DNA of 64,000 nt from Octopus vulgaris. Its lineage: Eukaryota. The first letter of the stretch is position 1, and each line of letters starts with the position of its first letter. Shown here piece after piece: positions 20,701 to 64,000 of this stretch. The position numbers and the translations under genes are program-made. The stretch is taken from positions 61,132,001 to 61,196,000 of the forward strand of contig OX597827.1 in assembly GCA_951406725.2 (NCBI GenBank), written 5' to 3'. The notes under the pieces are model-generated. The model was not told the DNA's origin, did no database searches, and worked only from the letters and a program-made list of their open reading frames with translations.

Positions 20701-22716
20701 ATAAAAAACACCATCCGAGCGTGGCCGTTCGCCAGCCTCGTCTGGCACCTGTGTCGCTGGCACATAAAATCACCCACTACACTCTCGGAGTGGTTGGCGT
20801 TAGGAAGGGCATCCAGCTGTAGAAACACTGCCAGATCTGACTGGCCTGGTGCAGCCTTCGGGCTTCCCAGACCCCAGTTGAACCGTCCAACCCATGCTAG
20901 CATGGAAAGCGGACGTTAAATGATGATGATGATGATGATGATGATGATCCCATATTCACTTTATCTATTGTTATGCTGTTTTCTCATTTTAGTTATACAT
21001 GTTTATTTTCTTCTCTTTTTAAAATCAGAGGTCCCACTGATATTCTGGATGCCTTGTCACAAACAGTTGGAAAGGTGAGTATTTGTCTTTCAAGAATATA
21101 AATATGTGGCTTAGATTTGATTGTCTTACTGGATACTGTCTTCAGAGTCTCTGAACCATCTATCTCCTGTTAATAAATACCGTAAATCCTCGAGTATAAT
21201 CCGCATTTTCCCCCCCAAATTTAAAGGTCAAAATGCCTAGTGCGTACTATATACGAGGTAAAAAATGAAAATTATTTTCTTAGCAATGTCCAAGACTCTA
21301 TTTGCTGTCCGACAATGTTTATTCAGACGCATTTTGTGATATCAGGTGCGAAAATACCTTAAGGTAAGCCTGAAAGCAATGAAGTCATAAAAGAATCATC
21401 CATAACTTGCAATAAGCAACATTTATTAAATGTTATTACTGTTATTTCTTTATTTTCTGCAAACAAAATGCACAAAAAAGCTACACGTTTGCATTATGCT
21501 ATATATACAATAATAATAAAGGACGTTACCGTATACATTTTTACAAACCAAGGACGTTATATAGACCTCTTTGACTCAAGTTAGAGAAGAGGTGCAGGCT
21601 TTTCAGAGGTACAACCCCCTAAAAATCCCCTGCGTATTATACTCAAGGGCGGACTATACTCCAGGATTTACGGTACTGCAGTTCCACTTGTCATTACAGT
21701 GAATGTTTCTCGAGTGTATTCAAGTATAGAGAGTTACTTTATCGAGTTTCAGTTCTCCTTCTCTCCCAAACAGCAATTCAAACAATTGGGAATAAGCTTT
21801 GAAACAGCTGAAGAATTTATTATAAAGTGGTTGGTGTTAGGAAGAGCATTCACTGTAGAAACTGAGCCAAACAGACTATGCAATCCAGTGCAGCTTTCTG
21901 TCAGGCTAGCCAACCCATGCTGGCATGGAAAACGGATGTTAATTAATGATGATGATAATGATATATATATATATAATTAATGATGATGATAATGATATAT
22001 ATATATATTCTTTTACTCTTTTACTTGTTTCAGTCATTTGACTGCGGCCATGTTGGAGCACCGCCTTTAGTCGGGCAAATTGACCCCAGGACTTATTCTT
22101 TGTAAGCCTAGTACTTATTCTATCGGTCTTTTTGCTGAACCACTAAGTTACGGGGACGTAAACACACCAGCATCAGTTGTCAAGCGATGTTGGGGGAACA
22201 AACACAGACACACAAACATATACACACACATACATATATATATATATATACAACGGGCTTCTTTCAGTTTCTGTTTACCAAATCCACTCGCAAGGCTTTG
22301 GTCAGCCCGAGGCTATAGCAGAAGACACCCAAGGTTACACGCAGTGGGACTGAACCCGGAACTGTGTGGTTGGTAAGCAAGCTACTTACCACACAGCCAC
22401 TCCTGCACCTATATATGTATATATATATGTGTGTGTGTATAGCATCATAGATCATCGTCATCATCATAATTTAACATCCAAGTTCCAAGCTGGCATGGGT
22501 TGGACTGCTGATTTTTTTATCCTTTGTGTTTTACTTGTTTTTAGTCATTGGACTATGGCGGTGCTAGGGTACTGCCTTGAAGATACACACGCACGCACAT
22601 TCATATATTCCATACATATTTTGTGTGTACAGTTAGATGTATGATTACAACTGTATGAGTTAGAGTTCCATGTATGTGTGTGTATATATGTATATATACA
22701 TACACACACACATATA

Positions 22717-25851: not shown

Positions 25852-28800
25852 GAAATAGATTGTTCCTGGAAGTTGTTTCTTATATCGGCAATTGATTACA
25901 CCTTGATCCTTGTGTCTTGCCTTTATATACATACACAGACACACATATATATGTATCTATGTATGCATGCATGTATGTGTCACGCCTGTATATATGACAC
26001 AAATCAAATAATACAGGAAACTCTTTTCCAATATTTGGATGGCTTCTAGTCCTCCATGTCAGTTAACTTTTTTCTCAACTACAACTTTAATCTTTATGCT
26101 CTCCAACACCAGTGACTTCACAAATACATCAAGCTGATGTATTGCTTCTGAAAAAAAAAAGGAAGGAAGCATAAAAAAAATCATCCAGTTCAGTCCAAAC
26201 ACCCAATATCTTTTTATCTTTTACTGGTTTCAGTCATTATATAGTAAAAGCAAGTGGCCTATTTTGTGGTCAGGTCAACAGATTTATGATTACAAGGTTG
26301 TGGTTTCAATTTCCAGTCCATTCCACTGAGATTAACTTTCCCTTTTATCCTTTCAGGGTTGATAAGTACCAATTGAGCACTGGGGTCAATTTAATCGACT
26401 AAGCCCCTCTCCCCTCCCCTAAAATTGCCGGCCTTGCACCAAAATTTGAAACCAATATAATGCTGCATCTGTTGTTGTTTATTTACTTTTCTTTTCTCTT
26501 TGTTTAGAGCTTCATGCCTCACGTAGAGAAGGGTTTCCATAAAGCTCCAGCGAACGAGTCAACTTTGTTGGAATGTGTGAAGCTGCGTAAAGTTACCAGT
26601 GCCATGTCAGTCTATGACAGAATTCTTGCTGAAGGTAATAATCTTTGAATCTCTGAAAGAGTTTTAAATCTGACCAGCAATCGTTTTTCAGGGGAACTTC
26701 CTACGTAATGGAGCGGGCTGTTGTATTTAAGTGTCCAGGGGAAATAATTCTCTCAATACGGATGGGAGTAAAATTGGATTACTCACCCATTTGATACCAC
26801 TCTGTCCAAGTCTGCTCTTACATCTGTCAAACAAACTTTCTATATAATATATTCTAAATTAAAATTTCATGTTAATTTATGTTTCAGCAATCAGCTTAAT
26901 AAGGATAAAGATATTTTACTAAATTCTTCATTATTTTCAAAATTAATTGAAGTAAAGGCGTAGGAGTGGCTGTGTGGTAAGTAGCTTGCTTACCAACAAC
27001 ATGGTTTCGGGTTCAGTCCCACTGCGTGGCACCTTGGCCAAGTGTCTTCTACTATAGCCTCGGGCTGACCAAAGCCTTGTGAGTGGATTTGGTAGATAGA
27101 AACTGAAAGAAGCCCGTCGTATATATGTATATATATATGTATGTGTGTGTGTATATGTTTGTTCCATACTTCAGCAACTCTTAGCATGAAAAAATGTTTC
27201 CGAAAGTCATGGGAGCTGTGCTGTTTTCTGACTTTGTAAACATGTCCACGGGTGTTAGACAGGTGGAGTTTGTAAAGGTGCTCAGAGTTATTGTTAGTAA
27301 TTTTATATCATTGTCTCAGAGTCTTAGCCTTCCAACTTTCCAAGACAGAAATGTGAAGACATGTTTGATATCCTTTCATAATTGACTTGTAAATCTAACC
27401 GTCTGTAATCTCTTCCAACATATTTGCTTACAGGAGCAACAGTCTCTTCAGATGTATTTCAACAACTTCTTGACCTGCTCTGTATATACAACTGCCAAAA
27501 TGTAGAAGTGCCCCTGACTCCCGAAGAATATTTTTATCAGCGTGATCTTGATTCCTCCAGGAATCAAAGATCAATCAAGAATACATGGAAGTACGTATGA
27601 TGATAATATTGATCTCTTAATATTATTGGTTTTATCTTTTATTTGTTTCAGTTATTTGACTGCAGCTTTGCTGGGGCACAGCTTTGAAAAATTTTTAGTC
27701 GAATGAATTGACTCCAGTACCTGTCTTTCTTTAAGCCTGGTACTTATTCTTTCAATCTCTTTTGCCGATCTGCTAGGTTACAGGGATGTAAACACACCCA
27801 TACCAGTTGTCAAGTGGTAGTGGAACACTAACACAGGCACAAAGAGACACACATACATACACATATATGATGGATTTCTTTCAGCTTCCATCTGCCAAAT
27901 CCACTCACAAGCTTTTGGTTAGCCTGAGGCTATAGTAGAAGACACTCTCCCAATGTGCCATGTGGTTGGGAAGCAAGCAAACTTCTTACCACACAGCCAT
28001 ACCTAACATGGCCAACACTGATTATTTCTAACAGCTTTTAACTCTTTCAAATTTATGTAATTTATAAAGGTGCAGGTATGGCTATGGGGGTATGGTGTTT
28101 GCTTTGTATTTAAATGGTCTCCAGTTCTATTTCATTGCTTGACACCTTGGACAAATGTCTTCTAATGTAGATTTGGATCTATTAATTCCTTGTAAATGGA
28201 ATTGGTAGATGAAGACTGTATGCAGAATCACACCTCTCTTTGAAAAATGCATTTTTTCGAAAAAAAATTTTCGGTTTTCTATGTTTTAGATATTAGAGAT
28301 TATGAATATGCAAAAAAAAAAAAAAAAACCCACCTTTTCAAATTTCATTCCACCCTGCTCCCTCTCCCCTATTTTAAATTTTGAACGTTTTTGATAATTT
28401 TTTTTTAAAACTACCTTTCCCAAATTTAAAATCCCTGCCTCAACCTCCTCTTCCCCCAAAATGGCGCACAACCCCACTCCCCAACAGACCTTTCCGACTT
28501 TCTATTTTTTTCAGCAGATTCCTATGTCTTCAATGACGGAGATTCTGAATATGCAAGAAACCACATTTTCAAAATTTTAAATTCCACCCTCACCCCCAAA
28601 TTTTAATTTAAAACTTTCTTTTGGGATTTTTATATTTTTGAAAAGGTTTTTTTTTTTTTTTTTTGCATATTCGTAACTCCAATATCTAAAATGTAGGAAT
28701 CCGAAAAATTTTTTTTCAAAAAAAATGCACTTTTCAAGAAGAGGTGCAAATTCTGCATTAACCCCCCACTTACCAATTTTTCTGTTTTTTTAAGTGAAAA

Positions 28801-31800
28801 AAATGTTTTTATTAATTAAAAATTAATTTTAAATTTAAGAAAAAAAAAATTTAAATGTTTAAATTAATTTTTCAGACAGGATGGCATGGCAGAAAAGATA
28901 TTCAATGACATGACGGAAAAGACACCTGAAGCATATTGTTCTTTAATTCAAGGTGCAGCAAAGGTGATTGTAAAGTTGATTTTCTCCATTCTCCCAGAAA
29001 TACACTTCAGAGTTTGATTTATTGTTTTGGGTGCATAAAGTATGAGAAGAATCTTGTGGTTCTAAGTTCCCTCAGAAATCACATAGTTCCAGGTTCAGTC
29101 CCACTGCACAGCTTGAAGGAAGCTTTTAACATGCATCCGGCATGAGTGCCAGTTATACAACACTGGAATTGGCCACAACTATGATCTCTCTTGGCTTGAT
29201 AGGTCTTCTCAAGCACAGTATATTGCCAAAAGTCTTGGTCACTTGTCACTGCTCACCATGCAGGCCTTCATCATCATCATCATTGTTTAACGTCCACTTT
29301 CCATGCTAGCATGGGTTGGACGATTTGACTGAGTTTTGGCGAACCAGATGGCTGCACCAGACTCCAATCTGATCTGGCAGACATTTGTGTGTCTGTGTTT
29401 GTCCCCCCCAACATTGCCTGACAACCAATGCTGGTATGTTTACGTCCCCGTGACTTAGCGGTTCGACAAAAGAGACCGATAGAATAAGTACTAGGCTTAC
29501 AAAGAATAAGTCCTGGGGTCGATTTGCTCGACTAAAGGCGGTGCTCCAGCATGGCCCTGTCAAATGACTGAAACAAGTAAAGAGAGAGAGAGTTACTTGG
29601 TGACCTCACTAGTGCTGGTGCCATGAAAAATGCACCCACTACACTGTGTAAGGTGGCTGGTATTAAGAAGGACATCTAGAAGCAGACACTGGAGACCAAC
29701 ACAGCCCTAAGGCTAGTTGGATCCTGTTGAACCACCCAGCATATGCCGGCATGGAAGAAGGGCATTAAATGATGAGATAATTGTGGTGGTGCTGGTAGCA
29801 GGAAAATCTTTGAGCTATGGTTTTTGGCCATGAGCACAAAGACATTGGTGCTGACAGGATACAAACTATTAGCCTCTTGGTTGATTGCCTTGCCCCTTTT
29901 CACTTAGCTATCTATGCTGTGTACACATGATAAAAAAAAAAAGAAATAAAAGATGGAACTGTAGAGAGCGAATAGAAAATTTCAGTTGATTTGTTGAAGT
30001 ATAGCCTGCCTCTTTTTTTAGGGCTTTTTCTTCATTTGTTTTGTTTTATTTTATTTTTCTGTTGTCATGGGGGTATGGTGTTTGCTTTGTATTTAAATGA
30101 TCTCCAGTTCTATATCATTGCTTGACACCTTATAATATAAGCTATATAGCTTTGGATCTATTAATTCCTTGTAAATGAAATTGGTAGATGAAGACTGTAT
30201 GCAGAATCACACCTCTCCTTGAAAAATTCATTTTTTTGAAAAAAAATTTTCGGTTTTCTATGTTTTAGATATCAGAGATTATGAATATGCAAAAAAAAAA
30301 AACCTACCTTTTCAAATTTCACTTCATCCTGCTCCCTCTCCCCTGTTTTAAATTTTGAACGTTTTCGATAATTTTTTTAAACTACTTTTCTCAAATTTAA
30401 AATCCCTACCTTCCCCCAAATTGTCGCACAACCCCACCCCCCAACAGACCTTTCCGACTTTCTATACAAACCATAGCTGAAAGATTTGTTGAAGTATAGC
30501 CTGCCTCTTTTTTTTAAGGCTTTTTCTCCATTTGTTTTATTTTATTTTATTTTTCTGTTGTAATTTGTTTCAGTATTATAACATGGAACGGGCTTTTAAT
30601 CTGTATGATGAAATGAAAGGGAAAAAATTACCAGGTAAGAAATTTTAGTTTCTCCTTCGTTATTCTTCATTATCATCATCGTTTGCTATGGCTGTTATTA
30701 TCTTATAAATAATTCTGCTTGTTTCTTCATTACTTAGTCTGTCTGTAACGCCTTCATGTGATTGGTCGAAGAGGAAGGGATGGAGCCTGGAGGTGGAGGA
30801 GAGGAGGGTGATGTGGTGTGTGATATGTATAATTTTTTTTGTGTTTTTGAGCTAAGTTTTTTTTCTCTCCATTACTTAACTTGTCTGTAACGCTTTCGCA
30901 TGATTAGCTGAAGAGAAAGGCAAAGAGCGAGAGAAAAAGGACAAAGAGAAAGGAGAGAGAAAAAGAGGGTAAGGTGAAGAGTGAGAGAGAAAGAGGGAGA
31001 GTGCTGTGTATTAAGTCTATAAAATTGTGCATAAAGTATAAAAATGCATTAAGTAGTCATCATGTTCCAATTTCCTTCACTTTTCAATGATTAGCAGAGG
31101 TTTGACTATCTTTTGATACAGACACAACATAAGCTATGCTTTCAGGTTACTCTTTTACTTGTTTCAGTCATTTGACCATGGCCATGCTGGAGCACCGCCT
31201 TTACTCGAGCAAATCGACCCCAGGACTTATTCTTTGTAAGCCTAGTACTTATTCTGTCGGTCTCTTTTGCTGAACCGCTAAGTTACGGGGACGTAAACAC
31301 TCCAGCATCGGTTGTCAAGTGATGTTGGAGGGACAAACACAGACACACACACACATGCTCCGTGCTGGTGGCATGTAAAAAGCACCATTTGAGCGTGATC
31401 GTTACCAGCGTTGCCTTATTAGCACTTGTGGCACATGAAAAACACATTCGAGTGAGGTCGTTGCCAGTGCCGCTGGACTGGCTCCTGTGCAGGTGGCACA
31501 TAAAAAGCACCATTTGAGCGTGGCCGTTGCTAGTACCGCCTGACTGGCCCTCATGCCAGTGGTATGTAAAAGCAGCCACTGCACTCTCGGAGTGGTTGGT
31601 ATTAGGAAGGGCATCCAGCTGTAGAAACTCTGCCAGATCAAGATTGGAGCCTGGTGCAGCCATCTGATTTGACAATCCTCAGTCAAATCATCCAACCCAT
31701 GCTAGCATGGAAAGCGGATGTTAAACAATGATGATGATATACATATATACGACGGGCTTCTCTCAGTCTCCATCTACCAAATCCACTCACAAGGCTTTGG

Positions 31801-34686: not shown

Positions 34687-35685
34687 AGAGAGAGAGAGAG
34701 ATAAGTAGATATAAAGATATATATATATATGTGATATAAAGATATATATATCATATATATCTTTATATATGCTCAGACAGGCATTGAAACTTTTCTCCTC
34801 CCTGCTTTCTCTTTTCCTCTTCCGCCTCATCTTCACCTCCTTCCTCTTCATCTTCACTTTCTTCGTCTTCACCTTTCTCCTCCCCTCCTCCTTTCCTTCC
34901 TTCCTTCCCATTTTCTCTCCCTCCTCTTCATTCTCCTCTCCCCCTGTCCTCCTCCCTCCTCCAAAGGTAAACAAGTATCATTACTATTATTATTTCCATT
35001 ATCAATCAATTCTTCGTTTTGTCATTAATTTTTAGAACCTTTTAAAAGACATGAAATCTTCGAAATTACAACCTAACTTAGCGACTTTCAATGCAGTTCT
35101 AAACAGCCTTTCAAGAATGACTCGCTTCGGCAAATGCCGAATGATTGCACACAATGTTTTGACTGAAATGAAGAACTGTGGTATTGGTAAGCATTGCTTT
35201 TTGGTGGCGGCTTTTATTAATTTTGTTTGTAATATTTTTCATCTTTTTATGTTTAGTGTGTAATATTGTGTGAAATCATGGGCCAAGTTTTATTAATCTA
35301 CTACCTTAGTCTATCATTTTGTGTTAATTAAGGAGCATCACTGAAGTCAATTGACTGTTAGAAATAATAGCTGTGTCTCACTCAAATCACAACATACTGT
35401 CTTAAATATAGAAAAGGCTCCGTTAGGTAATATAGTCTTAGATATTCTTGTAATGACAGGGTGGTTACAATTGGAATGTCTTTGATCATAGGTTTGCCAG
35501 TTTAGGGTTACCTAGGGCTAAACATTAGATGTAGGTATGGCTGTGTGGTTAGGAAGTTTGCAACCACATTGGTTTGATTTCAGTCCCATTGCACACCACT
35601 TGAGCAAGAGTCTTCTATAACCTTGGGCTGACCAATATCTTTGAGTGAATTTAGTCAATAGAAATTGTGTGGAAGCCTTTCTTTA

Positions 35686-39963: not shown

Positions 39964-41350
39964 TAACAACAACAACAATAAGTCTGTTCGAAGGACAGAC
40001 AAAGGGATTAAGTTGACTATATCGACTCCAGTGCGTAACTGGAACTTAATTTATTGACTCCGAAAGGATGAAAGGTAAAGTCGACCTTGGCGGTGTGCAT
40101 TTCGCCTGGTGTGCTAACGTTTCTGCCAGTTTGCTGCATTATTGTCATACAAATGATGTTTGTTTCTGGTCTGCTATAGAAAACATGCCTGGCCATAGGG
40201 ATATATTAACTTGCTTGGAATCATGCAACAGTTGATGACAGGAACGGCATCTGGATGTAGAAAATTTTGCCGCAACAAAATTCCACCTGACCAATGCAAA
40301 CATGGAAAAGTGGATGTTAAAATGTTGATGAACTAAAACAATGGAGGCACATGGCTTAGTTGTTAGAGTATTTGGCTCACAATTGTCTGGCTGTGAGTTT
40401 GATTCCTGAAGGAGTGTTGTGTCCTTGAGCAAGACACTTTATTTCACATTGCTCCAGTCTACTCAGCTGACAAAACTGAGTGGTACATGTATTTCAAAAG
40501 GCCAGCCTTCTCACATTGTGTCATCCTAAATCTCCCTGAGAGCTACATTAACCCTTTAGCATTTAAACTGGCCGTATTCTGCCTGTTTTATGTTCAAACT
40601 GGCCAGATCTGGTCTCTCACACCAACCCTACAATATCATTTTAAAAATTAACAGCTACCTCATCAAAATCTCATAGCTACAAGATAATGCCTGATTAGTT
40701 CAAAACAATGTGGATAAAGAAGCATTAATTTTGGCAGAATAATGTGAACACTAAAGGGTTAAGGGTATGCATGTCTGTTGGGTGCTCAGCCCCTTACATA
40801 TTAATTTTACAAGCAGGCTGTTCTGTTGATTGGATCAAATGGAACTCTTGTCACATTAACTGACAGAAGGCCAGTATAAAAGAGGTTTTTTTTTTGCAGA
40901 CAGATTGGGCCATGGCACAATAAAGGGCTCTACATTTCTATTGCGTCCTAGCTAAAGCTAAATGCTCATCCTGTCTATCTCTCTATTTTCTCATGACAGA
41001 TGTGGAGTCCCAGGTTATTTATCAAATCATGGACCACCTGAAGGATAAGGAAATGACACTGCAACATCCAGCTGATTGTGAGTATCCATCAACATGTCTG
41101 TTTTGTGTGTGTGTTTGTATGTGTGTGTGTATCTTTTATCTTTCACTTGTCTCAATCATTAGACTGCAGCCATGCTAGAGCACTGCCTGGAAGAATTTTT
41201 AGTCGAATGACGTGACCCCAATAGTTTTTTTTTTCTTTCTTTAAAAACCTGCTATTAATTCTGTCAATCTCTTTGCTGAACTTCTAAGTTACAAGTATGA
41301 CACCGGCACTAGTTGTCAAATGGTGGTAGGGACATACACAGACAGAAAGG

Positions 41351-43730: not shown

Positions 43731-43780
<50 letters not shown>

Positions 43781-44703
43781 TCATCATCGTTTAATGTCCG
43801 TTTTCCATGCTAGCATGGGTTGGATGGTTCGACCAGGGTCTGGGAAGCCAGGAGGCTGCACCAGGCTCCAGTCTGATCTGGCATTGTTTCTACAGCTGGA
43901 TGCTCTTCCTAATGCCAACCACTCCATGAGTGTAGTGGGTGCTTTTTACGTGCCACCAGCACAGGGGCCAGAGGAGGCTGGCAACAGCCACAATTGGTTG
44001 GTGCTTTTTACATGCCACTGGTACAGATGCCAGTCAAGGTGGCGCTGGCATCGGCTATGTTCGGATGGTGCTTTTTATGTGCCGTGTGTGTATGCATAGT
44101 AGTATGCGTGTGAGTATATAGTGAGAGACAGAGATGTATATATGTGTGTATATATACACAAATATATGTATGTATATATATCTGCATGTATATATGCGTG
44201 CACACACACCTGTATATGTGTACTTTGTTTTTGTATTTAGTCTGTTTTATATATATACATATATATACTTACTTACTTACTTGTATACCCATGTTTTTCT
44301 GCAGTGCTATATCCAAATTAAAGACTTGGAATTGGCCTACAAAATCGATGAATTCCTCCACTGTGGTTCTAACTACAAATTCCTTGGTGATGCCTTCAAG
44401 GAAGGAATCTATTAGTGAGTAGTAAATTTAATATACATACAATCATTGCTTTCAATTAACCAAAATAACTACCCTGCCTCCTACGACACATACGCACATT
44501 CATTAAATCACTAACTTCTTTATATTATATGGTTGCTATCATCAGGAGTGGCTGTGTGGTAAGTAGCTTGTTTACCAACCACATGGTTCCGGGTTCAGTC
44601 CAACTGTGTGGAACCTTGGGCAAGTGTCTTCTACTGTAGCCTCGGGCCGACCAAAGCCTTGTGAGTGGATTTGGTAGACGGAAACTGAAAGAAGCCCGTC
44701 GTA

Positions 44704-44749
<46 letters not shown>

Positions 44750-45581
44750 TGTGTGTGTTTGTGTGTCTGTGTTTGTCCCCCTAGCATTGCTTGACAACCG
44801 ATGCTGGTGTGTTTATGTCCCCGTTACTTAGTGGTTTGGCAAAAGAGACCGATAGAATAAGTACTGGGCTTACAAAAGAATAAGTCCTGGGGTCGAGTTG
44901 CTCAATTAAAGGCGGTGCTCCAGTAAAAGAGTAAAAGAGAGTAAAGAGTATCATCATTTAATGTCTGGTGTCCATGCTGGCATGGTTTGGACGGTGTGAC
45001 CTGAGCTGGCAAGCTGAGGGGCTGCACCAGATTCCAGTCTGATCTGGCATGGTTTCTGTGGCTGGATGCCCTTCCTAACACCAACCACTTTACAGAGTGT
45101 GCTGGAAGCTTTTACATGGCACTGTATGGGCGCTTTTACATGTCACAGCACAGGTGCTCCTATGTGGCATTGTCATGAATGCTTTATGCAACCAGAGGGA
45201 TGAGTCTTAACACTTCTGCTCTAGAGTGTGGGTCTTCATGAGTACGCCCAGGCGTCCTTGCCTCAAAGGTTCAGCTTCCTGAGGTTGCTCTTCAGTACTT
45301 CATCCCATGCCTTCCGGGGTCTCCCACTTCCACGAGTTCCATCCACTTTGAGAGATCAGCACTTCTTTATGGAGCTCTCTTTACTCTTTTACTTGTTTCA
45401 GTCATTTGACTGCGGTCATGCTGGAGCACCGCCTTTAGTCGAGCAAATCGACCCCAGGACTTATTCTTTGTAAGCCTAGTACTTATTCTATCGGTCTCTT
45501 TTGCTGAACCGCTAAGTTACGGGGATGTAAACACACCAGCATCAGTTGTCAAGCGATGTTGGGGAGAGGGAACAAACATAT

Positions 45582-45616
<35 letters not shown>

Positions 45617-48600
45617 TGCATATATACAACGGGCTTCTTTCAGTTTCCGTCTACCAAATCCACTCACAAGGCTTTGGTCGGCCCGAGGCTATAGTAGAAG
45701 ACACTTGCCCAAGGTACCATGCAGTGGGATTGAACCCAGAACCATGTGGCTGGTAAGCAAGCTACTTACCACACAGCCACTCCTGTGGCCAGCAGGAGCT
45801 GTCAGCATCCATTTACATACTGTCTAGAAATAGTGAGCAGATTTTCTTCCTGCTGTATTAAATATGGAATGACAAATTTGAGTGCATAGCCTGAAATAGA
45901 ATACTTATCTTTCACTTGCAAGTCAGGCCACCTCACCATTACCACCACTACCACACATGCACATATGTACATATACACAGATATACACCACTTATATCCC
46001 CACCTCCAACATGTTTATACTTATATATGTATATACACACACATTTATACATTTAAATTTATTTCAGTTCGTTCTTTTTCCGCCTAATTTGTCAATTTGA
46101 GACTCTGGAGAAAATCATGTACTACTATGACTTGTTCGCCCCAAATGTAAGTAAGCCACTCCACCTTTCTTTATCAACCACTTTGTTTTGATTATTTTAA
46201 ACTATCTATAACTCGGACTTACAGATTGGGTTGTAGTGACACTGTTGCGGGTTGTGGTGGTGTTTTCTTTCTGTTGGCTAATGTTGGTGTCATGTAACCG
46301 GCACCTTTTGAGTGTTGGCTGGCCTCATGGAAGCAGTGTGGCCGATGCTGGTGTCACATAACTAGCATCCATGCCAGTGTCATGTGCTGAGACCCCCTTC
46401 GGTCATGACTGACTATGAAATTGCACCTAGAAAGTTACCCTCCCAGGCACAAGTCCGGGCAAGGTTGTTTATGGAAGACCAGCAGTCGCCCATGCATACC
46501 GGCCTCCCCTCTCCACACCACCAGTGTTATCCAAGGGAAAGGCATAGGGCTGATACAGCTTGGCACCAGTGATGTTGCAACTCATTTCTACAGCTGAGTT
46601 AACTGGAGCAATGTGAAATAAAGTGTCTTGCTCAAGAACACAACACTCAGCCCAGTCTGGGATTCAAACTCGATGCTCTAACCACTGAGCCATGCACCTT
46701 CACAGTGTCATGTAGAAAGCACCTTTTGAGCATTGGGCCTCACGGAGGCAATGAAAAATTACTGAGAACTTGGCAATATACTATACTTGAGAAGAAGACC
46801 CATTAAACCAAGTGAAATTGTTGTCATGGCAGATACTATTGTTGTGCAACTGGCACATAGAAGCACCCATTACACTCTCAGAGTATTGTCCTTGCATTGG
46901 CCTATGTTATGATTATATATATTTTGACTGCTGTGCTTAAAGGTGTTATTTAGGTAATATGAATTAAGTTTATGCTTAGTAGATGAGGCAACAATAGATT
47001 CTATATTGGGTGGAGAGGAGTAGGATAATTTCAGAGTAGTACTGTGCCATGCAGTAAGACTGAACCTGGAACCACTTGGTTGGGAAGCAAGCTTCTTACT
47101 ACACAGCCGCACTTTCGCCTATACACACACATGCATGCACACATGATGGGCTTTCAGTTACCATCCACTAAATCCGATCAGAAGGCTTTGTTTGACCTAA
47201 GGCTATAGTAGAAGATACGTGTCCAATGTGCCATGTGTTTGGGAAGAACACTTTTTAACCACACAGCCATGAGGGCCATGCCTGCAGGTTATTATTAAAC
47301 TTGTGTTTGGAACATAAATTGATAAATACCGTAAATCCTCGAGTATAATCTGCATTTTTTTCCCAAAATTTAAAGGTCAAAATCCCTAGTGCGTACTATA
47401 TATGAGGTTAAAAATGAAAATTATTTTCTAAGCAACATCCGAGTCTCTATTTGCTGTCCGGCAATGTTTATTCAGATCCATTTTGTGATGTTGGGTGCGA
47501 AAATACCTTAAGCTAAGCCTGAAAGCAATGAAGTCATAAAAAAATCATCCATAACTTGCAATAAGCAACATTTACTAAATGTTATTAGTGTTATTTCTTT
47601 ATTTTCTGCAAACAACATGCACAAAAAAGCTACACGTTTGCATTATGTTATATATACAATAGTAAAAAAGTACGTTACCATATACAGTTTTACAAACCAA
47701 GGACGTTAGATAGACCTCCTTGACTCAAGTTAGAGAAGGGGTACGTATTATACACAAGGTTTAGGTTTTTCAGAGGTACAGCCCCCTAAAAATCCACTGC
47801 GTATTATACTCAAGGGTGGACTATACTCGAGGATTTACGGTATAAATTAACATGAAATATTAATTTATATAATCCATATATGTTTTCTTTGCTGTAGATG
47901 TGGACACCAAACACTTTGGCACTGTCTGAACTGTTGAAGGCAATTCAACTTCATGATGGCCAAGAACATCTTCCTCGAATATGGTCTGGTAAGTATGAGA
48001 CCTCGCATGTCTTTCCACTTGTCTGAGTGTCATCACCGTTGTCGTTGTCACTTGTTCTGGTCCTTTGTCGTCTCCTTTGTGAAATTCCCCACCCTTCTGA
48101 AATTGAGATCCTCCTCTCCATCCCATGCCTTCTTCAGTTTTCTTTCTCTGTAGGTTATTTATATTGAGATTGCTTGGACACTTTCATCAGCTGTGTGTGC
48201 ATATGTGTATCTGTATATAAAAATATGTATGAGAAATTGCAATAAACACAAGTTCATATTATTTGTATGTATATATATAAATATATAATAATAATAATAT
48301 TAGGGAGCATTATTCCAAACTTACAGGGAAAAATTCAATTTAGTAATACTAAATCAAATTTCACAATAATATATATATATGAATTAGAGAAGAACCACCT
48401 TTTATCAATTCAACAATGAAATAACACTGATATAATTAAATTATACCATATAGGAAAAAAATTAAATATATGATAAAAACATATAGCAATAATTAAGTAA
48501 TGTACAAAATAATAAATAAAAAGTATATAATTGTTAAAAGGACTACACGTGTTTCGTGGCTATATTTTCAAACTGATAACAGTAAAATTAATTCAATTTA

Positions 48601-48967: not shown

Positions 48968-51900
48968 CAAAATATACATTAAGTGAAAACTAAAATACTA
49001 TAATCTATATACATTAAATTAAATTATTTATTTATTTAATAAACGTCTAAGTTAAATCTTATTCTAATTATAATTATATATAGATATGTATAATATCATC
49101 ATCATCATCATCATCATTTAGCGTCCGTTTTCCATGCTAGCATGGGTTGGACGGTTCTGCTGGGGTCTGTGAAGCCAGAAGGCTTCATCAGGCCCAGTCA
49201 AATCTGGCAGTGTTTCTACGGCTGGATGCCCTTCCTAACGCCAACCACTCCGTGAGTGTAGTGGGTGCTTTTTACGTGCCACCCGCACTGGTGCCAGCCA
49301 GAGCTGGCAAACGGCCACGAACGGATGGTGTTTTTTATGTGCCACCGGCACGAGGGCCAGGCGAGGCTGGCAACGAACACGAAACGGGGCGGTGCTGGCA
49401 ACGGTCGCGAAACGGAAGGTTCTCTTACATGCCACCGGCACTGGTAACACATCTGCAATTTCCATTGATCGATTTCGATTCTGATCCTCACTTGCCTCAA
49501 TGGGTCTTCACAAGCAGAGTTTCGACATGCCACCGGCACTGGTAGCACATCCGCAATTTCCATTGATCGATTTCGATTCTGATCCTCACTTGCCTCAACA
49601 CGTCTTCACAAGTAGAGTTTTGTGTCCCAAGAAGGGAAGGTATGCATACGTAGGCTGGCTCCATCCCATGTAGAAGGCCACGGGTTGTGGACTCACTTGT
49701 CCTGCCGGGTCTTCTCGCGCACAGCACACTTCCAGAGGTCTCGGTCTCTAGTCATTTCCTCGGTGAGACCTAAAGTTCGAAGGTCGTGCTTCACCACCTC
49801 GTCCCAGGTTTTCCTGGGTCTGCCTCTTCCACAGGTTCCCTCAACCGCTAGGGTGTGGCACTTTTTCACACAACTATCTTCATCCATTCTCGCCACATGA
49901 CCATACCAGCGCAAACGTCTCTCTTGCACACCACAACTGATGCTTCTTAGGTCCAGCTTTTCTCTCAAGGTACTTACACTCTGCCGAGTGTGAGTACTGG
50001 CATTACACATCCATCGGAGCATACTGGCTTCATTTCTAGCGAGCTTACGCATATCCTCAGCAGTCACGGCCCATGTTTCACTGCCATGTAGCATGGCTGT
50101 TCGTACACACGCATCATACAGTCTGCCTTTCACTCTGTGCGAGAGGCCTTTTGTCACCAGCAGAGGTAAGAGCTCTCTGAACTTTGCCCAAGCTATTCTT
50201 ACTCTAGCAGTTACACTTTCAGCACACCCGCCCCCGCTGCTGACTTGGTCACCTAGGTAACGGAAACTATCAACTATTTCTAGTTTTTCTCCCTGGAAAG
50301 TGACAGAAGTTGGTCTCAGAGCATTTTCAGTGTTTATTGTTCCTGAGCATCTGCCACATACAAAAACCATCTTCCTAGTTAGCCTTCCTTTGACATTGCT
50401 GCATCTCTTATGTGTCCATAGCTTACACTTGGTGCATCTTATAGAGTTTCTACCTACACCTTTTCTACAGATCGAGCAGGGCCATCTACCTGAAGGTGTT
50501 TGTGATTTGTCTACCTTCCTACTGATTACGACTTTGGTTTTAGCTAGATTGACTCTGAGGCCCTTCGATTCTAATCCTTGTTTCCACACCTGAAACTTCT
50601 CCTCCAGTTCTGATAGCGACTCAGCAATTAGAGCAAGGTCATCAGCATAGAGGAGCTCCCAAGGGCATCCTGTCTTGAATTCCTCCGTTATTGCCTGGAG
50701 GACTATGATAAATAGGAGGGGGCTGAGTACTGAGCCTTGGTGGACCCCTACCTCTACCCGGAATTCTTCACTGTACTCATTTCCAACCCTCACCCTACTA
50801 GCGGCGTCCCTATACATGGCCCGCACAGCTCTCACTAACCATTCATCTATCCCTAGTTTTCTCATTGCCCACCAGATAAGGGATCGGGGGACCCTGTCGA
50901 AGGCTTTCTCCATGTCAACAAAAGCCAGGTACAGGGGCTTATCTTTGGCTAGGTATTTCTCCTGCAGCTGCCTTACCAGGAATATAGCATCAGTAGTACT
51001 TTTCCCTGGCACAAACCCAAACTGCATCTCATCTAAACTAACTCTCTCTAATTAGTTGGGCTATGACCCTCTCCGTAACCTTCATCACCTGGTCCAACAG
51101 CTTGATACCTCTGTAGTTGTTTGTATCTAGGGCATCACCTTTACCTTTGTAGCAGTTGACTATTATACTGCTACACCAGTCATTGGGTATGACCCCTTTG
51201 TGTATCACCTGATTAACTATATGGGTGACTAGGCTATAGCCGACACTACCAGACATTTTGAGCATCTCTGCAGTGATTCCTGATGGGCCTGGGGCTTTCC
51301 CTGTCTTCATGCTTCTAATTGCCTTAGCTACCACAGAACTATCAACTCGGATAGCTGGTCCCTCTGTTGGGTCAACATTCGGCAGACTCTCTTTATCCCA
51401 TTCATTTTCTTCATTCAGCAACCTTTCATAGTGGCATCTCCAAACCTCTCTCTTTGCATCCTCATTTAGCGCAAGTGAACCATCTTCCATGCGAACACAC
51501 TTCTCTCCTACCACATCACGATTCTCTCTCACACACTGTCTTGCAACACGAAACACCTCCAGTCTTTGGTCCTCACGGCGCAGAACATTGGCAAATTTTT
51601 TCTTATCTGCTTCCCCTCTGGCTAAATAAACCTGTCTCCTAGCTTCTCTTTTGGCAGTCTGATACAATTCCCTGCTACCCCCATTTTTCCAGACCTTCCA
51701 AGCCTGTCTCTTTTCTCTAATAGCCCTGTCTACAATATTGTTCCACCACCACGTTATTCTAGGTCGAGAGGGGACTTTTCACCAGCCACAGATCTGGTCA
51801 GTGGCTCTCAGCAGGTTGTCCCTTAGAAACGTCCAGCTGTCTTCTACCCCCTGTGATGCTCTATCCCCTTCTACTTCGTCAGAGGCTTCAAGTAATATGT

Positions 51901-54561
51901 CCCTAAATCTCTGTCCATTTGCAGGATCTTTAAGCTTCCAGATCCTTCTTCTCCATATTTGTCGTCTTCTGGTTGTCCTCCTAGTCCTGATCCTAAAGTC
52001 ACTAACTACCAGTCTATGTTGTGGGGTACATTCTTCACCTGGGAAGGTTTTGGCATTTATAAGCAGCCATCTCTCCCTTTGCCTTGTAAGGATGTAGTCA
52101 ATTTGGCTGGTATGTTGGCCCGATTGGTAAGTGACTAGGTGGCTGGTAGGTTTCCTGAAGTTAGTGTTGCAAATCATAAGATTATTTGCATCGCAGAACT
52201 CCAGCAGCCTGGTTCCCTCCTCGTTGCGGGAGCCATAGCCGTAGCCTCCATGTACGCCATGGAAGCCCCCAGCATGTCGTCCAACGTGACCATTGAAGTC
52301 ACCAGCCACAAAGATAAGGTCTCTGTCGTTCGTCAATGAGGTAGTCTGCAGTAGAGTGTCATAGAATCGGTCTTTCTGTCCATCGGGTAGCCCCGACTGA
52401 GGAGCATAGGCTGATATAATGGTTGCTAAACTATGATGAAGCACTAATCTAATCTTAAGTATTCTGTCACTTACTCTGATTACCTCAATTACTTTATCTA
52501 CCCATTTCTCAGCGATAAGTATACCCACGCCACCAACCCCGTCAGTATTCCCTGCCCAGAAAATCTTGTACCTGCGTTCCTTGCCTGTGAGGAACCTAGC
52601 TGATCCTCCTCTCCACCTTATTTCTTGCATGCAACATATATCCACACATCTCCGTTCAAGCATCTCGACTATCTCACCAGACCTACCTTTCAGAGTGCCA
52701 ACGTTGAGGGTGCCAACCCTGAGGGTGTGGAAGGCATGGGCTCTAGAGACCCTGGGACGGTGGACAGTAGCTTCGTGTACCTGAAAAGAAAGCTCGCATT
52801 TGGCAGAATTCATGTGCAAAAAATGAAGTAGTAAAGTAGCCTTCAGTACAACCTGCATAACGCTAGCCTTTCATATTTTGCACTGTATGAACATTACCTT
52901 ACATAGGTCGAGACTAGGGGTAGGGAGGGGTAGGGATGGTGAGAGCATTTGCAGTCTTCATGGGAAGCAACCCCGGAATGGAAGAGAATAGGAACTTCCG
53001 GCATGCGTGGTGGGGGTGGGAGGGCGGGTGCACCGTAGCTGAGTAAAGAGGTTCTGTTAATCGTGAGCTAGCAAATGGGTTAGTATGAATCGGGAGACAA
53101 TACTAAACGAAAAATTGAAAAATTGAAAAATTGAAAAATTGAAAAATTGAAAAATCAGAGTGGCTATGAACCTGGAGACAAGTCTAAACGAAAAAAATGT
53201 TTGAGCTAGACAGGGTAATGAGGGAATACTGAAAGAATGAGGGACAATACAATGAGATGGAAATTGAAGAATAGAGAAAGAGTAAGGATAAGTGCAAGAA
53301 AGAAGGTAGTCGTAGCGAGGTTGAACGATTCACTTAACTTTTAGCCATTCATGATCTGTGCGTATTCTTTAGATATTTTGAAGCGAGTGGGGTTAACGAT
53401 AAATGCGATCGCTCTTTTATGTATGGCGATGATGGTTTTGGGGAGTGGGGGGGGGGCATAGAGGACCATGGCGATGATGGTTATGGGAAGGGGGGAACAT
53501 AGCGAGAGAGAGATAGGGTTAGTTAGAGAGAGAGGTCAAGGGACACGTGACAATAAGCGGTGTGAGGGAATTTGACTGGGGACGGCATTGTCGATAAATA
53601 AACATTAGATAAATAGGTTTGAAAATCAGAAAAATCAGAGGGAATATCATTATTGATAGCTAATATAACACCGTAGCTGAGTAAAGAGGTTCTGTTAATC
53701 GTGAGCTAGCAAATGGGTTAGTATGAATCGGGAGACAATACTAAACGAAAAATTGAAAAATTGAAAAATTGAAAAATCAGAGTGGCTATGAACCTGGAGA
53801 CAAGTCTAAACGAAAAAAATGTTTGAGCTAGACAGGGTAATGAGGGAATACTGAAAGAATGAGGGACAATACAATGAGATGGAAATTGAAGAATAGAGAA
53901 AGAGTAAGGATAAGTGCAAGAAAGAAGGTAGTCGTAGCGAGGTTGAACGATTCACTTAACTTTTAGCCATTCATGATCTGTGCGTATTCTTTAGATATTT
54001 TGAAGCGAGTGGGGTTAACGATAAATGCGATCGCTCTTTTATGTATGGCGATGATGGTTTTGGGGAGTGGGGGGGGGGCATAGAGGACCATGGCGATGAT
54101 GGTTATGGGAAGGGGGGAACATAGCGAGAGAGAGATAGGGTTAGTTAGAGAGAGAGTCAAGGGACACGTGACAATAAGCGGTGTGAGGGAATTTGACTGG
54201 GGACGGCATTGTCGATAAATAAACATTAGATAAATAGGTTTGATATATATATATATATATATATATGCATATATAAATATATGTGTGTGTGTGATGTATT
54301 TGTATATATGTGTGTGCATATGTATGTGTGTATATAGATGTATTTATATATGTACACACATACACCTTCATCATCATCATTGTTTAACGTCCGTTGTCCA
54401 TGTTGGCATGGGTTAGACAGTTTGATCAGAGCTGGGGAGCTGCACCAGATTCCTGTCTGATTTGGCATGGTTTCTATAGCTGGATGCTCTTCCTAATGCA
54501 AATCACTTTACAGAGTGTGCTGGGTGCTTTTTTGATATATATGTATATATATATATATATG

Positions 54562-54598
<37 letters not shown>

Positions 54599-57500
54599 CT
54601 CTCTCTCTTTTGGAGAGGCACTGAGCAGCTATACGCACACATACACACACGGCAGTAACTTCCACCTACCGAATTCAATCACAAAGCTCCGGTCGGCTCG
54701 GGGCTATAGTGGAAGACACCTACCCAAAGTGCCACGCAGTGGAACTGAACCCGAAACCATGTAGCTAGGAAGCAAGCTCCCTAACCACACAGCCATGTAT
54801 ATATATATATATATATATTCCATTTTGCTTCTGTTTTAGACCTGGTTATGTTTCAATTCACACGAGGAGAAGAAACTGGGACAATATTTAAGTTAATGGC
54901 TGATGAGAGCCGGCCTGAGGTAAGTAATGTCTTATTTTCTTGTCCCCCACTTAACAAAATGTTTTATGGAAATAATATATTAGACTAACTGGCAGCTACT
55001 TGAATCAGTGTGGGAGAGGAGAGGCCTTAGACTGGTCACCAAGCTGGTGGTGTACCAAGCAGCTGTACTGCTTATGCTACTGTACTTTTTCTTCAACTCC
55101 AGTATACACACACAAAAAAACCCATCTTGTGAGATGATTTCTTTCGGATGTGTATACTGGCGTTGAAAAATTGATGTGACCATAAATTTTCTGTAGATCT
55201 GAAGAGCTAGCCTTCTATATCTGCACGCACACGTGCATACGCACGCACACACATATAGCCCTGTTTTGATGTGTGTTGGGATGCCAGCTAACCACAAATA
55301 CATCATAGTTTTCCGCCACAATAAAAATAATTGACTTAGTGAATAGTCCAGTGACTTTGTACGTTTGAAAAACAGCATCCTGTGTTGGTTCCAAATTTTT
55401 GGCCCAGGGCCAGCAATTTCAGGGATAGGGAAGAAGTCTATTACATCTACCTTAGTACTCAACTGGTACTTATTTTTATTGTGGAGGCACATGGCCTAGG
55501 GGTTAGAGCAGCGCACTTGCAGTTGAGGAATCGTGGGTTCGAATCTCAGACCGGGCGATGTACGTGTTTATGAGCAAAACACCTAAGCTCCACGTGGCTC
55601 TGGTAGAAGGTAATGATGAACTTCTGCTGACTCTTTCGCCACAACTTTCTCTCACTCTTTCCTGCAGCTCACCTGCGATGGACCAGCATCCCGTCCAGGT
55701 GGGGAATCAATACGCCAAGGAAACCGGGAAACCGGCCCTTATGAGCCAGGCATGGCTCGAGAAGGAACAAACAAAAACTTATTTTTATTGACCATGAAAG
55801 GCAAAGTCAACCTCAGCAGCATTTGAACTCAGAATGTAAAGATGGATAAAAAGCCACTAAGGATGGTGGCAATTCTTATTTCTTTACTACCCACAAAGGG
55901 CTACACACAGAGGGGACAAACAAACGGATTAAGTCGATTTTATCGACCCCAGTGCGTAACGTACTTATTTAATCGACCTCGAAAGGATGAAAGGCAAAGT
56001 CGACCTCGGCGGAATTTGAACTCAGAACGTAGCGGCAGACGAAATACTGCTAAGCATTTCACCCGGTGTGCTAACGATTCTGCTAGCTTGTCGCCTTATG
56101 TGTCAATTCTGCTAGCTCGCTTCCTTGAGCAGCATCCTATATTGAACAGCTTGTACATTTTCTACCGTCCCTGTCTAGCTTACACAATACTAGTAAACTG
56201 CCATTTTCATTGGCTCTCTTGTTTTTCAGCTCCTCTCGCAGTTTGCTGATGTTGCAGTGAAAATTATTGAGAGATGGACAGAAGAAAACGATGCAAACAT
56301 AAGAGAGTTTATTGTGTAAGTTTGTTATTCTGCTATTTTTGTTTATCTTTTATCTGTTTCAGGCTGCGACCGTGCTGGAGCACTACTTTGAAGAATTTTA
56401 CTCAAACGAATTGATCCCAGTCCTTGTTTTTTTACTTTTTATTTTTCAAGCCTGGTACTTATTATGTCAGTCCCTTTTTTCTGAACTGCTAAATTACAGA
56501 GACTTAAACACACCAATACTGGTTGTCAGAGGGACACAGATACAAAGAAACATGCGCGCGACGCACACACACACACACACACACATGATGGGCTTTTTTC
56601 GGTTTCCGTCTACCAAATCCACTCACAAGGCTTTGGTTGGCCCGAGGCTATAGCAGAAGACACTTGCCCAAGGTGCCACGCAGTGGGACTGAACCCAGAA
56701 CCATGTGGTTGAGAAGCAAGCTTCTTACCACGCAGCCTCTCCTGCAGCTATATTTAGCATCCGTTTTTCCATGTAGGCATGGGTTGGATGGTTTGACTGG
56801 AACTGATAAGCAGGAGAGCTGCACCAGACTCCAGTTGTCTGTTTCGGCTTGGTTTTTACAGCTGGATGCCCTTCTTAATGCCAACCACTCCACAGAGTGT
56901 AGTGGGTGCTTTTTACATGTCACCAGCACTAGCTATGACTGTGATTTCACTTGGCTTGATATGTCTTCTCAAGCACAGCAAATAAACCAAAGATCTCGGT
57001 CATTTTTCACCACTTCTGTGAGACTCAACATCCGATGATCATACTTCACCACTTTGTCCCATGTCTTCATGAGTCTACCTCTTCCACAGGTTCTCTCCAC
57101 AGTTAGAGATTGACACTTCCTTACACAGCAGTCCTTGTTCATATGCATCACATGACCATACCTATTTCTTTACTACCCACAAGGGGCTAAACACTGAGAG
57201 GACAAACAAGGACAGACAAACGGATTAAGTCGATTACATTGACCCCAGTGCATAACTGGTACTTATTTAATCGACCCCGAAAGGATGAAAGGCAAAGTCG
57301 ACCTCGGCGGAATTTGAACTCAGAACGTAAAGACAGACGAAATACCGCTAAGTATTTCGACCGGTGCGCTAACATGTCTGCCAGCTCGCCGTGTATGGTC
57401 GCATCACATGACCATACCAGTGCAGTCTTCTCTCTTGCACACCACATCTGATGCCTCTAAAACCCACTCTCTCTCTCTCTCAAGACGCTTTGAATTTATC

Positions 57501-58956
57501 CTGACGAATTTATCAAGTTGTTTTGATTTTATCCTGCATTATCATGTAGCCTTGAGATTTCAATGAAGTGATTGTTTATCTTTTTAGACAGATTTTGTAT
57601 GGTAAGTGTGGGAAGCCAGATCTGGCCAGTTTGAACATAAAACAGAATATTTTGGTTTGATGTGGCTGGTTTAAATGCTAAACAGTTAATGTTTTTGTCT
57701 TTTTTTTTTCTTTATTCTAGATTAACAGGTGAACTCCTTGGAAATATGATGGTAATTGTTATGAAAGCTGATCGTTTTAGTGATGCCTGGTATGTTATTG
57801 TTTACAGATTTCTTACATTGACCAATCAAAAGTCATTTAACAATTGTCATAAAATTTTGGTGTACGCTTTTCATATACTAGCAGTATCACCCAGCGTTGC
57901 TTGGGTTTGTTTCAACCCTTTAGAATTGGCATTTTTGAAAAGTAAAAATTTTGTATTATGTAGCTTGTTATTCTCTTTAAGTGAACATTTTTCTGGTTGA
58001 AATACACTGAAAAATGGCGACACAGCAGTCAAAAAATCATAAAAAATAGGGATTTTCATAGAAAAAAAAGCACATTTTTGATATAAATAATTTTTGGTCT
58101 TAACATGGTTTGATTTGAATTTTGTTCTTCTATGGAAGGAAGAGCAAGCCTTCTTGTATCATACTGTCAATTTTGGTCAACTTGCACCGCAGGGTCTTGG
58201 AGGAGACAGTGTTAGTTGAAGGCTACCAAGCCTGCCACACACAGAAAACTTCAGCTTTATATATATAGAGATATCTAATTTAAGTAACATATTTTTTCCT
58301 TGCTGATTTTTGTTGAAAATAATTCAAGCTATATGAACGTTCTCAACAAGTTCCTTTGCAAAATATTGGTTTGCAACTTTAGTGGAAGGCCAGCAATTTC
58401 AGGGGTGGGAGATAAGTCGATTAGCTCAACCCTAGTGCTCAACTGGTACTTATTTTATTAACCTTGAAAGGATGACAGCCAAAGTTGACCTCGACAGTAT
58501 TTGAACACAGAACGTAAAGACTGATGAAATGCCAGTAGGCATTTTGTCCCGCACACTAACAAAATTGCCATCTTGCTGCCTTTCTTTCACAAATATCAAA
58601 GATATTTAGGTGTAGGCTGCTGAGACCCCCTTCGGTCATGACTGACCGTGGGATTGCATCTAGAAAGTTACCCTCCCAGGCACAAGTCCAGGCAAGGTTT
58701 TATGGGAGACCAGCAGTCGCCGATGCACACCGGACTTCCCTCTCCACACCACTGGTGTTATCCAAGTGAAAGGCAAAGGGCGATACAGCTTGGCACCTGT
58801 GACGTTGTAACTCATGTCTACAGCTGAGTGAACTGGAGCAATGTGAAATAAAGTGTCTTGCTCAAGAACACAACACGCAGCCCGGTCTGGGATTCGAACT
58901 CACAACCTCACGATTGTAAGCTCGACGCTCTAACCACTGAGCCATGTGTAGGCACG

Positions 58957-62466: not shown

Positions 62467-64000
62467 GTAAGTTAGAATATTAAATACCTAGACATAGTTG
62501 GTCCTCACTTTCTGTTTCAGTTCTGTGTGCGTCATGTTGGTCAGGTAACCCTCACTTGGGGCCACAACTAGTTGTTGTTCTTTATGTTGTTTTGTCTCAG
62601 TCATGTTGTTTCCATACTGTAATCAAAGATATTTCAGCTACTTATAATGTGTATGTGTTAAATATATAGAGGCGCAGGAGTGGCTGTGTGGTAAGTAGCT
62701 TGCTTACCAACCACATGGTCCTGGGTTCAGTCCCACTCCATGGCACCTTGGGTAAGTGTCTTCTACTATAGCCTCGGGCCGACCAAAGCCTTGTGAGTGG
62801 ATTTGGTAGACAGAAACTGAAAGAAGCCCGTCGTATATATACATATATGTGTGTGTGTGTGTGTTTGTCCCCCCAACATCGCTTGACAACCAATGCTGGT
62901 GTGTTTACGTCCCCGTAACTTAGCGGTTCGGCAAAACAGACCGATAGAATAAGTACTTGGCTTACAAAGAATAAGCCCTGGGGTTGATTTGCTTGACTAT
63001 AAAGGCGGTGCTCCAGCATGGCCACAGCCAAATGACTGAAACAAGTAAAAGAGTAAAAAGAGTATATCTTGGACTATCTTGGACTATGTTACCCATTGCG
63101 TCCTTCCTAGTCGTTTTGTTGGAAAGAGACTTTGGTTATTATTTCTAGCAGGTTGAGCAACTACTGAGAGTCTACTTTGTTGGTTTGACTTTACACAGTT
63201 GTAATTAATAATAATGTTGATGGTAAGGAGGAGTAGGATGAGGTTGATAAGAAAAGACTGAAAGAAAATCAATAATATGTGTAGGCATGGCTGTGTGGTA
63301 AGTAGCTTGCTTCCCAACCACATCGTCCTGGGTTCTGTCCCACTGCATGGCACCTTGGGCAAGTGCCTTCTTCTATAGCCTCGGGCTGACCTTGTTAGTG
63401 GATTTGGTAGACGAAAACTGAAAGAAGCCTGTTTGTGTGTGTGTGTGTCTTTGTGTCTGTGTTTGTCCTCCCCACCATTGTTTAACAACTGATGTTGGTG
63501 TGTTTACGCTCCTGTAACTTAGTGGTTTGGCAAAAGAGACCGATAGAATAAGTACTACGCTTACAAAGAATAAGTTCTGGGGTTGATTTCATCATCATCA
63601 TCATTTAGCGTCCGCTTTCCATGCTAGCATGGGTTGGACGGTTCAACTGGGGTCTGGGAAGCCAGGAGGCTGCACCAAGTCCAGTCTGATCTGGCCATGT
63701 TTCTACGGCTGGATGCCCTTCCTAACGCCAACCACTCCGTGAGTGTAGTGGGTGCTTTTTACGTGCCACCGGCACAGGTGCCAGACAGGGCTGGCAAATG
63801 GCCACGGACGGATGGTGCATTTTACGTGCCACCGGCAGGGGGGCCAGGCGAGGCTGGTAACAGCCACGATCGGATGGTGCTTTTTACATGCCACTGGCAC
63901 AGAGGCCAGTCGGGGCGGCGCTGGCAACGGCCATGGTCGGGTAGTGCTCTTTACATGCCACCTTCAACTAAAACCCTTTAAGGTGGCGCTCCAGTATGAC

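Follow-up and report, generated by a model that had tools for sequence, protein, structure and literature searches.

A PHD finger embedded in the reverse transcriptase of a branch of RTE LINEs and its possible role as a chromatin tether

Two RTE elements published by Tay et al. in 2010, BfRTE-a02 of Branchiostoma floridae and NvRTE-a01 of Nematostella vectensis, carry in their sequences in supplementary file 2 the same finger at the same place as the octopus element described below, and that paper files both simply as RTE (PMC2887409). Each has a single ORF of ~1,060 aa encoding an APE endonuclease and a reverse transcriptase (RT), while the ORF of the octopus copy is broken. The words "PHD," "zinc," and "cysteine" are absent from the main text of PMC2887409, and the finger architecture has been visible, uncommented, in RTEs published in 2010. 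Finger-less RTEs, including OlRTE-a03, McRTE-a01, GaRex3-a01, and plant elements (plant/animal and Rex3 subgroups), share the ORF layout and the RT motifs of the octopus element and are 34 to 43% identical, over two separate stretches, to the protein encoded by its 3′ part (P0001); they differ from it in the absence of the finger, in a spacer of 23 to 31 aa between RT motifs 6 and 7, and in an FKYLGS-type motif 7.

CR1, L2, and Crack LINEs also possess PHD fingers, but these reside in ORF1 or before the endonuclease and not inside the RT, and for one CR1 subgroup the best structural match of the PHD is Pygo1 (2vpb_A; Table 1 of PMC4120745), as in the family studied here. An ORF1-type PHD of such LINEs is a possible source of the RTE finger. 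The structure of ORF2 was called highly constrained by Metcalfe and Casane in 2014 (PMC4120745). From Octopus vulgaris, Petrosino et al. (2022) reported RTE-2_OV, which resembles the present element in being a single-ORF RTE with UTRs of ~600 nt; its description names a C2H2 finger but not a PHD (PMC9115989), which sets the two apart as described, and a C-terminal zinc pattern was not found in 76 full-length finger-bearing relatives of our element. The literature searched yielded no earlier description of an RT-embedded PHD in RTEs, and the available text of a 2026 review on retrotransposon tools contains no mention of PHD (PMC13708176). Such a description may exist in Repbase, Repbase Reports, Dfam, patents, subscription journals, or genome-paper supplements. 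Pfam already tags many database members of the family as RVT_1 plus PHD.

The window, i.e., the whole 64,000-nt stretch of octopus DNA that was analyzed, contains the element listed in Table 1. Its identity as an RTE, which the initial annotation had proposed, was borne out by the layout recognized by Pfam (one ORF with an N-terminal APE endonuclease followed by the RT), by a 3′ end consisting of a short tandem repeat, (GAT)n, rather than poly(A), and by P0079 of B. floridae, a relative that is 52% identical to P0001 and, in the motif 6-7 segment, matches BfRTE-a02 except at a single residue; neighbors carry the OlRTE-a03-type linker. The three ORF pieces are collinear with intact relatives of 1,048 to 1,102 aa, which indicated that they represent one ORF interrupted by one in-frame stop (51779-51781) and one frameshift (near 51041-51048). 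The octopus copy is dead. Upstream of the ORF there are only short ORFs of 60 to 126 aa, and inspection of both TA-rich flanks by eye revealed no clear target-site duplication.

Table 1. Positions of the RTE element, its embedded finger, and the exons of the host gene in the window
Feature	Position	Strand	Remark or basis
5′ ORF part: APE endonuclease	51779..52870	-	First ATG 52858; Exo_endo_phos above Pfam cut-off
Middle ORF part: linker and RT N-terminal part, 246 aa	51038..51778	-	Frameshift before 3′ part
3′ ORF part: RT motifs 2-7, finger, thumb, C-terminus; 452 aa (P0001)	49693..51051	-	
RT motif 5, catalytic YADD	50638..50649	-	
RT motif 6, GLRVNLAKTK	50533..50562	-	
Motif 6-7 loop (approximate): finger and two variable linkers	50308..50520	-	Spacer lengths; low-confidence linkers in model
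C4HC3 PHD finger, P0001 residues C192-C235	50347..50478	-	Pattern and Pfam; ligands invariant in 118 rows
RT motif 7, FRYLG	50251..50265	-	
3′ UTR, ~575 nt	49095..49692	-	Ends in (GAT)n tail at 49095-49117
Exons, PTCD3/mS39-like pentatricopeptide-repeat gene	35036-35186, 44305-44414, 47898-47988, 56230-56315	+	
Further candidate PTCD3/mS39-like exons	26527-26634, 28876-28969, 40952-41077, 57721-57941		Splice-site scan

The closest named matches to P0001 came from Octopus vulgaris (87%) and O. bimaculoides (84%). Contigs from two public runs aligned on the element in large numbers (7,675 and 1,560), with a depth dropping toward its 5′ end, and other copies among these contigs differ from the window copy at both lesions. 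The family is multicopy and 5′-truncating, and the window copy is one dead member of it. The LINE lies antisense in the intron after 47988 of a PTCD3/mS39-like gene, two exon pieces of which match mS39 in the PDB in the correct order (E 2e-5 at about residues 320 to 368 and E 0.03 at about residues 425 to 450), the exons lacking an mS39 match being candidates from a splice-site scan.

Several repeats were observed around the element. A near-perfect tandem duplication of ~600 nt (53031-53622 and 53669-54243; 97% identical), which contains short internal repeats, lies just upstream of the LINE ORF. It could represent a promoter or 5′ UTR unit that became repeated, or it may have no relation to the element. 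The 3′ UTR contains a second tandem duplication, of 96 nt (49427-49522 and 49525-49620; 94%), close to which a 12-nt motif occurs four times. The last 110 to 290 nt of the 3′ UTR occur at 15 places in the window, including the element itself, with 68 to 90% identity (e.g., 3959-4230, 20657-20942, 43777-44043, and 63589-63869), and these are probably truncated copies or an RTE-mobilized SINE. A dinucleotide microsatellite follows within 24 nt in 6 of the 15, versus 9% of random positions, which hints weakly at a preference for TA-rich targets or at repeats that grew after insertion. Older, related RTE C-terminal coding fragments are present at 56947-57500 and 45266-45361 (62 to 69% amino acid identity).

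The finger reads CSIC-x10-CTKC-x4-H-x2-C-x14-CGRC in the minus-strand ORF, with C1 starting at 50478 and C8 ending at 50347, and it is followed by the LEIVDSFRYLG stretch at 50283-50251. The initial annotation had reported an exact C4HC3 spacing with a W two residues before the His and an F two residues before Cys7, and the same was found here in ORF 49693-51051 at exactly the coordinates it gave; it had omitted the strand, as well as the fact that the LINE copy bearing this intact finger is broken. Upon profile searching, RVT_1 was detected in P0001 at E 1.2e-27, and Pfam PHD (PF00628) scored 28.9 bits (E 1.1e-6; cut-off, 24) on an isolated 60-aa piece and 22.4 bits, below that cut-off, within the whole ORF, the whole-protein cut-off being passed by 6 of 9 relatives. 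The finger is the sole C4HC3 match across the six frames of the window, and shuffled P0001 reproduced the pattern in 0 of 20,000 cases. Sequence matches to solved PHDs agree with a PHD fold, and the C1 and RING identities were ruled out by the ligand order and by lower Pfam scores. The PHD identity is thus supported both by the Pfam score above the cut-off on the isolated piece and by the order and spacing of the C4HC3 ligands.

Among the best 120 matches to P0001, 115 were parsable, and 112 of these retain the strict finger pattern, the remaining 3 having small indels within the finger. The eight zinc ligands are invariant in an alignment of 118 rows whose sequences are ~50% identical, which confirmed that the Cys and His residues are conserved in relatives. 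Named hosts of finger-bearing RTEs are Hydractinia, Mercenaria, Branchiostoma floridae, B. belcheri, Octopus, and the catfish Neoarius, to which the supplement of PMC2887409 adds Nematostella. The length of the motif 6-7 spacer is bimodal among cluster representatives, at 83 to 96 aa with the finger and mostly 23 to 31 aa without it, consistent with the earlier claim that typical RTEs have a short linker at this position. Both RT halves were present in 289 of 388 proteins, of which 40 have the short spacer and 249 the long one, the pattern being present in 247 of the latter.

Since the above matches were found with a query that includes the finger, a finger-blind search was run with residues 1 to 176 of P0001 to remove this bias. 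Its top 120 matches comprised 74 with finger and motif 7 intact, 26 with a damaged, partial, or unanchored finger, 15 that end, leave the frame, or are damaged before a recognizable finger, 4 that could not be parsed, and 1 with a short spacer retaining the first two cysteines (a partial deletion); none of the 120 has a clean finger-less linker. An unrooted tree was then inspected, for which 55 de-duplicated rows and 361 columns without the insert were used and P0131, a partial deletion, was left out. A branch supported at 100/99 set all 37 finger-bearing rows apart, and the sole finger-less row nested among them, P0150, has lost YADD as well. P0131 and P0150 were rejected as natural finger losses, both being damaged copies, and the occurrence of the layout in hundreds of relatives led us to reject a chimeric or misassembled origin of the finger. 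Since the loop is short in sister RTEs and in L1, we infer a single gain of the finger. These data indicated that an entire, old branch of RTEs has the finger as its normal layout and that the octopus element is no oddity in this respect.

Some members of this family are mislabelled in the databases: P0283 is listed as a catfish slc22a21 isoform, P0030 of O. bimaculoides is fused to a LETM1 domain, P0079 is called a ribonuclease H in UniRef, and P0023 is assigned to a Herbaspirillum MAG, presumably reflecting animal contamination.

Conservation was compared along the protein. Pairwise identity was 0.63 for the loop of residues 196 to 205, 0.61 for the RT core, 0.57 for the finger, 0.42 for the thumb, and ~0.2 for the linkers. 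Motif 7 differs between the two groups, reading FCYLG in 93% of the 249 finger-bearing relatives and FKYLG in 80% of the 40 short-linker ones; accordingly, finger-bearing rows have C264 (93%) and D268 (98%) where short-linker rows have K (80%) and S (82%). The octopus P0001 itself has R at 264 (50260-50262) and D at 268 (50248-50250).

The structure of P0001 was predicted by AlphaFold2 from the 118-row alignment with a mean pLDDT of 89.5 (finger, 87 to 95; flanking linkers, 74 to 76). The model superposes on R2 and L1 ORF2p over 340 to 370 of the 452 residues (Z, 13 to 20; rmsd, ~4 Å), and the finger strands 203-205 and 212-214 are confident in the full model. The prediction is therefore of an intact palm from which the finger loops out as a separately folded unit, a point that the initial annotation had proposed to check by structure prediction. 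When the whole model was used for fold searches, all matches were polymerases and none was a PHD structure, and a prediction of the lone finger without an alignment gave a pLDDT of 46.

The finger makes the motif 6-7 loop ~62 residues longer than in finger-less RTEs. In the R2Bm RT, an insert called 6a (residues 672 to 677) lies between motifs 6 and 7, reads an upstream target motif, and is required for nicking, which its deletion blocks, and the 6a loop was called unique to R2 (PMC10499050); in vertebrate R2, 6a wedges into the upstream DNA (PMC12180492). Residue 175 of P0001 aligns to R2Bm 666, and for P0153, a sister without the finger, the alignment extends through motif 7 to residue 711 of R2Bm. 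R2 6a and the finger are therefore both non-LTR RT inserts located between motif 6 and motif 7, an analogy of position only, without sequence homology, since 6a comprises six residues making base-specific contacts and has no homology to PHD. The finger occupies the loop that faces target DNA in R2 and, by this analogy, may have the same orientation in RTE. R2 is site specific and has a C-terminal RLE, whereas RTE has an N-terminal APE, and this difference in the cutter and its position weakens the analogy. The placement of the finger next to the RT active site, as first proposed, thus holds in sequence only, and the site is better specified as the motif 6-7 loop, the R2 counterpart of which faces upstream target DNA.

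A family profile built from the 118-row alignment identified Pygopus 1/2 as the best solved PHDs (E 2e-6 to 9e-5), and the Atlas match for the family, at the strength of a lead, was the PHD/PHD_Pygo cluster (0.91). In Pygo1, the K4me2 pocket has walls formed by W366, Y341, and D352 and a base formed by V350 and A356, I357 contacts Thr3, there is no Arg2 pocket, and mutation of E360 abolishes binding (PMC2726290). Pocket positions were transferred via alignment to Pygo2, and residues were counted in the 234 strict-spacing fingers of 249. The pocket equivalents proved to be aromatic (224/234), V (215/234), I (214/234), and W (230/234), while the A356 position is S in 222/234 and A in 9/234; the aromatic residue, W190 in P0001, is encoded at 50482-50484 within the motif 6-7 loop. 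The most conserved face of the finger thus matches the Pygopus H3K4me2 pocket at 4 of 5 positions.

The RTE finger and the Pygopus PHD (PF27108, PHD_Pygo) are alike in the equivalents of Y341, V350, A356 (mostly Ser here), I357, and W366 and in having no acidic Arg2 pocket. In contrast, the Pygo acidic residues are mostly absent (D352 equivalent in 7/234 and E360 equivalent in 11/234), the face is basic instead of acidic, the loops are shorter, the domain is embedded in an RT, and there is no partner like BCL9-HD1; the Ala1 pocket of Pygo is shaped by this partner domain, for which no counterpart was identified for the RTE finger. The comparison was extended to H3K4me3 cages of the TAF3/ING/BPTF type, in which the TAF3-type floor is a Met (M882; PMC12238850). 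RTE fingers possess the two aromatic walls of such a cage, with a floor of Ser instead of Met and no conserved acid after Cys3. In PHF23, a reader of H3K4me3, Cys3 is likewise followed by Ser, so the lack of the acid is compatible with histone binding.

Based on these sequence comparisons, we propose that the finger could tether the protein to chromatin by reading a methylated H3 tail, with DNA contacts assisting, an explanation to which we give an even chance of being right. The finger in the motif 6-7 loop would hold the protein, with its endonuclease and RT, on a nucleosome next to the site of insertion. Its Pygopus-like pocket (aromatic 190, V199, S203, and W212, with I204 for H3 Thr3) would hold the methylated H3K4 tail, its basic surface would hold nearby DNA, and nicking and priming would then be favored in chromatin with methylated H3K4. 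The position of the loop, the conservation of residues 196 to 205 at about the level of the RT core, and the matches to the Pygopus pocket all support this tether. Against histone reading stand the near absence of the D352 and E360 equivalents, the missing TAF3-type Met floor, and the net positive charge of all 247 fingers, which is a poor match for the basic H3 tail; the conserved face might alternatively contact nucleic acid or be packed against the RT.

The second reading is a histone-blind clamp for nucleic acid, whose basic surface would bind upstream target DNA or element RNA and would aid target capture or processivity, the finger acting on target DNA as an enlarged counterpart of the R2 6a loop; we regard it as possible and less than probable. 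The K/R richness noted initially stood for the octopus finger (net charge +14, no acidic residue) and is lower at the family level, where the net charge is nevertheless positive in 247/247 fingers with a median of +6. K/R residues are kept after the His (H+1 is K in 191/234 and H+2 is K or R in 211/234), and the location in the same loop as R2 6a is in keeping with such a clamp. A precedent is the yeast Hop1 PHD, whose lysine pocket is degenerate; it contacts the DNA of the nucleosome, and no density for a histone tail was seen (PMC10907721). Unlike in Hop1, however, the pocket positions (aromatic, V, S, I, and W) are the best-kept nonligand residues of the RTE finger, and they are hydrophobic or small instead of basic; most basic positions vary among K, R, and other residues. 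Both ideas put forward in the initial annotation, chromatin reading and nucleic acid binding, thus gain specific support at the sequence level.

It is unlikely, in our judgment, that the finger is a protein-interaction or structural module that docks on the APE, the thumb, or a nonhistone host factor, or that it substitutes in part for ORF1. RTEs lack an ORF1 protein, and the change of motif 7 together with the insert (C264 and D268 versus K and S) may reflect packing, but these residues belong to one clade and may share no more than history. PHD fingers are also known to bind nonhistone partners (PMC3241642), and in CR1/L2 LINEs they occur either in ORF1 or where ORF2 begins (PMC4120745). Nevertheless, the variable, lower-confidence linkers fit a flexible reader better than a core element, and sister RTEs work without any finger. 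Finally, a tolerated passenger without function, to which the abundance and success of finger-less RTEs might point, is strongly disfavored and very improbable given the eight invariant ligands across sequences of ~50% identity, a finger better conserved than the thumb, and the lack of a clean loss in the finger-blind matches, the one nested finger-less copy, P0150, being also devoid of YADD.

Taken together, the finger is real, conserved, and lineage defining, and the tethering mechanism proposed from sequence is plausible and specific. Since the finger is small, invariant, and part of the catalytic protein, and since intact members exist along with finger-less sisters as controls, its function is directly testable. 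No LINE is known to read a histone mark itself; parallels outside LINEs are chromovirus integrases and RAG2. The architecture is common in databases, where Pfam annotates it automatically, and it may be noted in Repbase. It also shows that the motif 6-7 loop of a LINE RT can accommodate ~60 residues of folded domain, which is of use for gene-writing tools built on RTEs. APE-type LINEs have been described as inserting broadly (PMC13708176). Tentatively, and with doubt on our side, an old, animal-wide branch of RTEs might choose its insertion sites by reading H3K4 methylation through its own polymerase, and the motif 6-7 loop might then be a recurrent socket for targeting modules in non-LTR RTs, among them R2 6a and this PHD.
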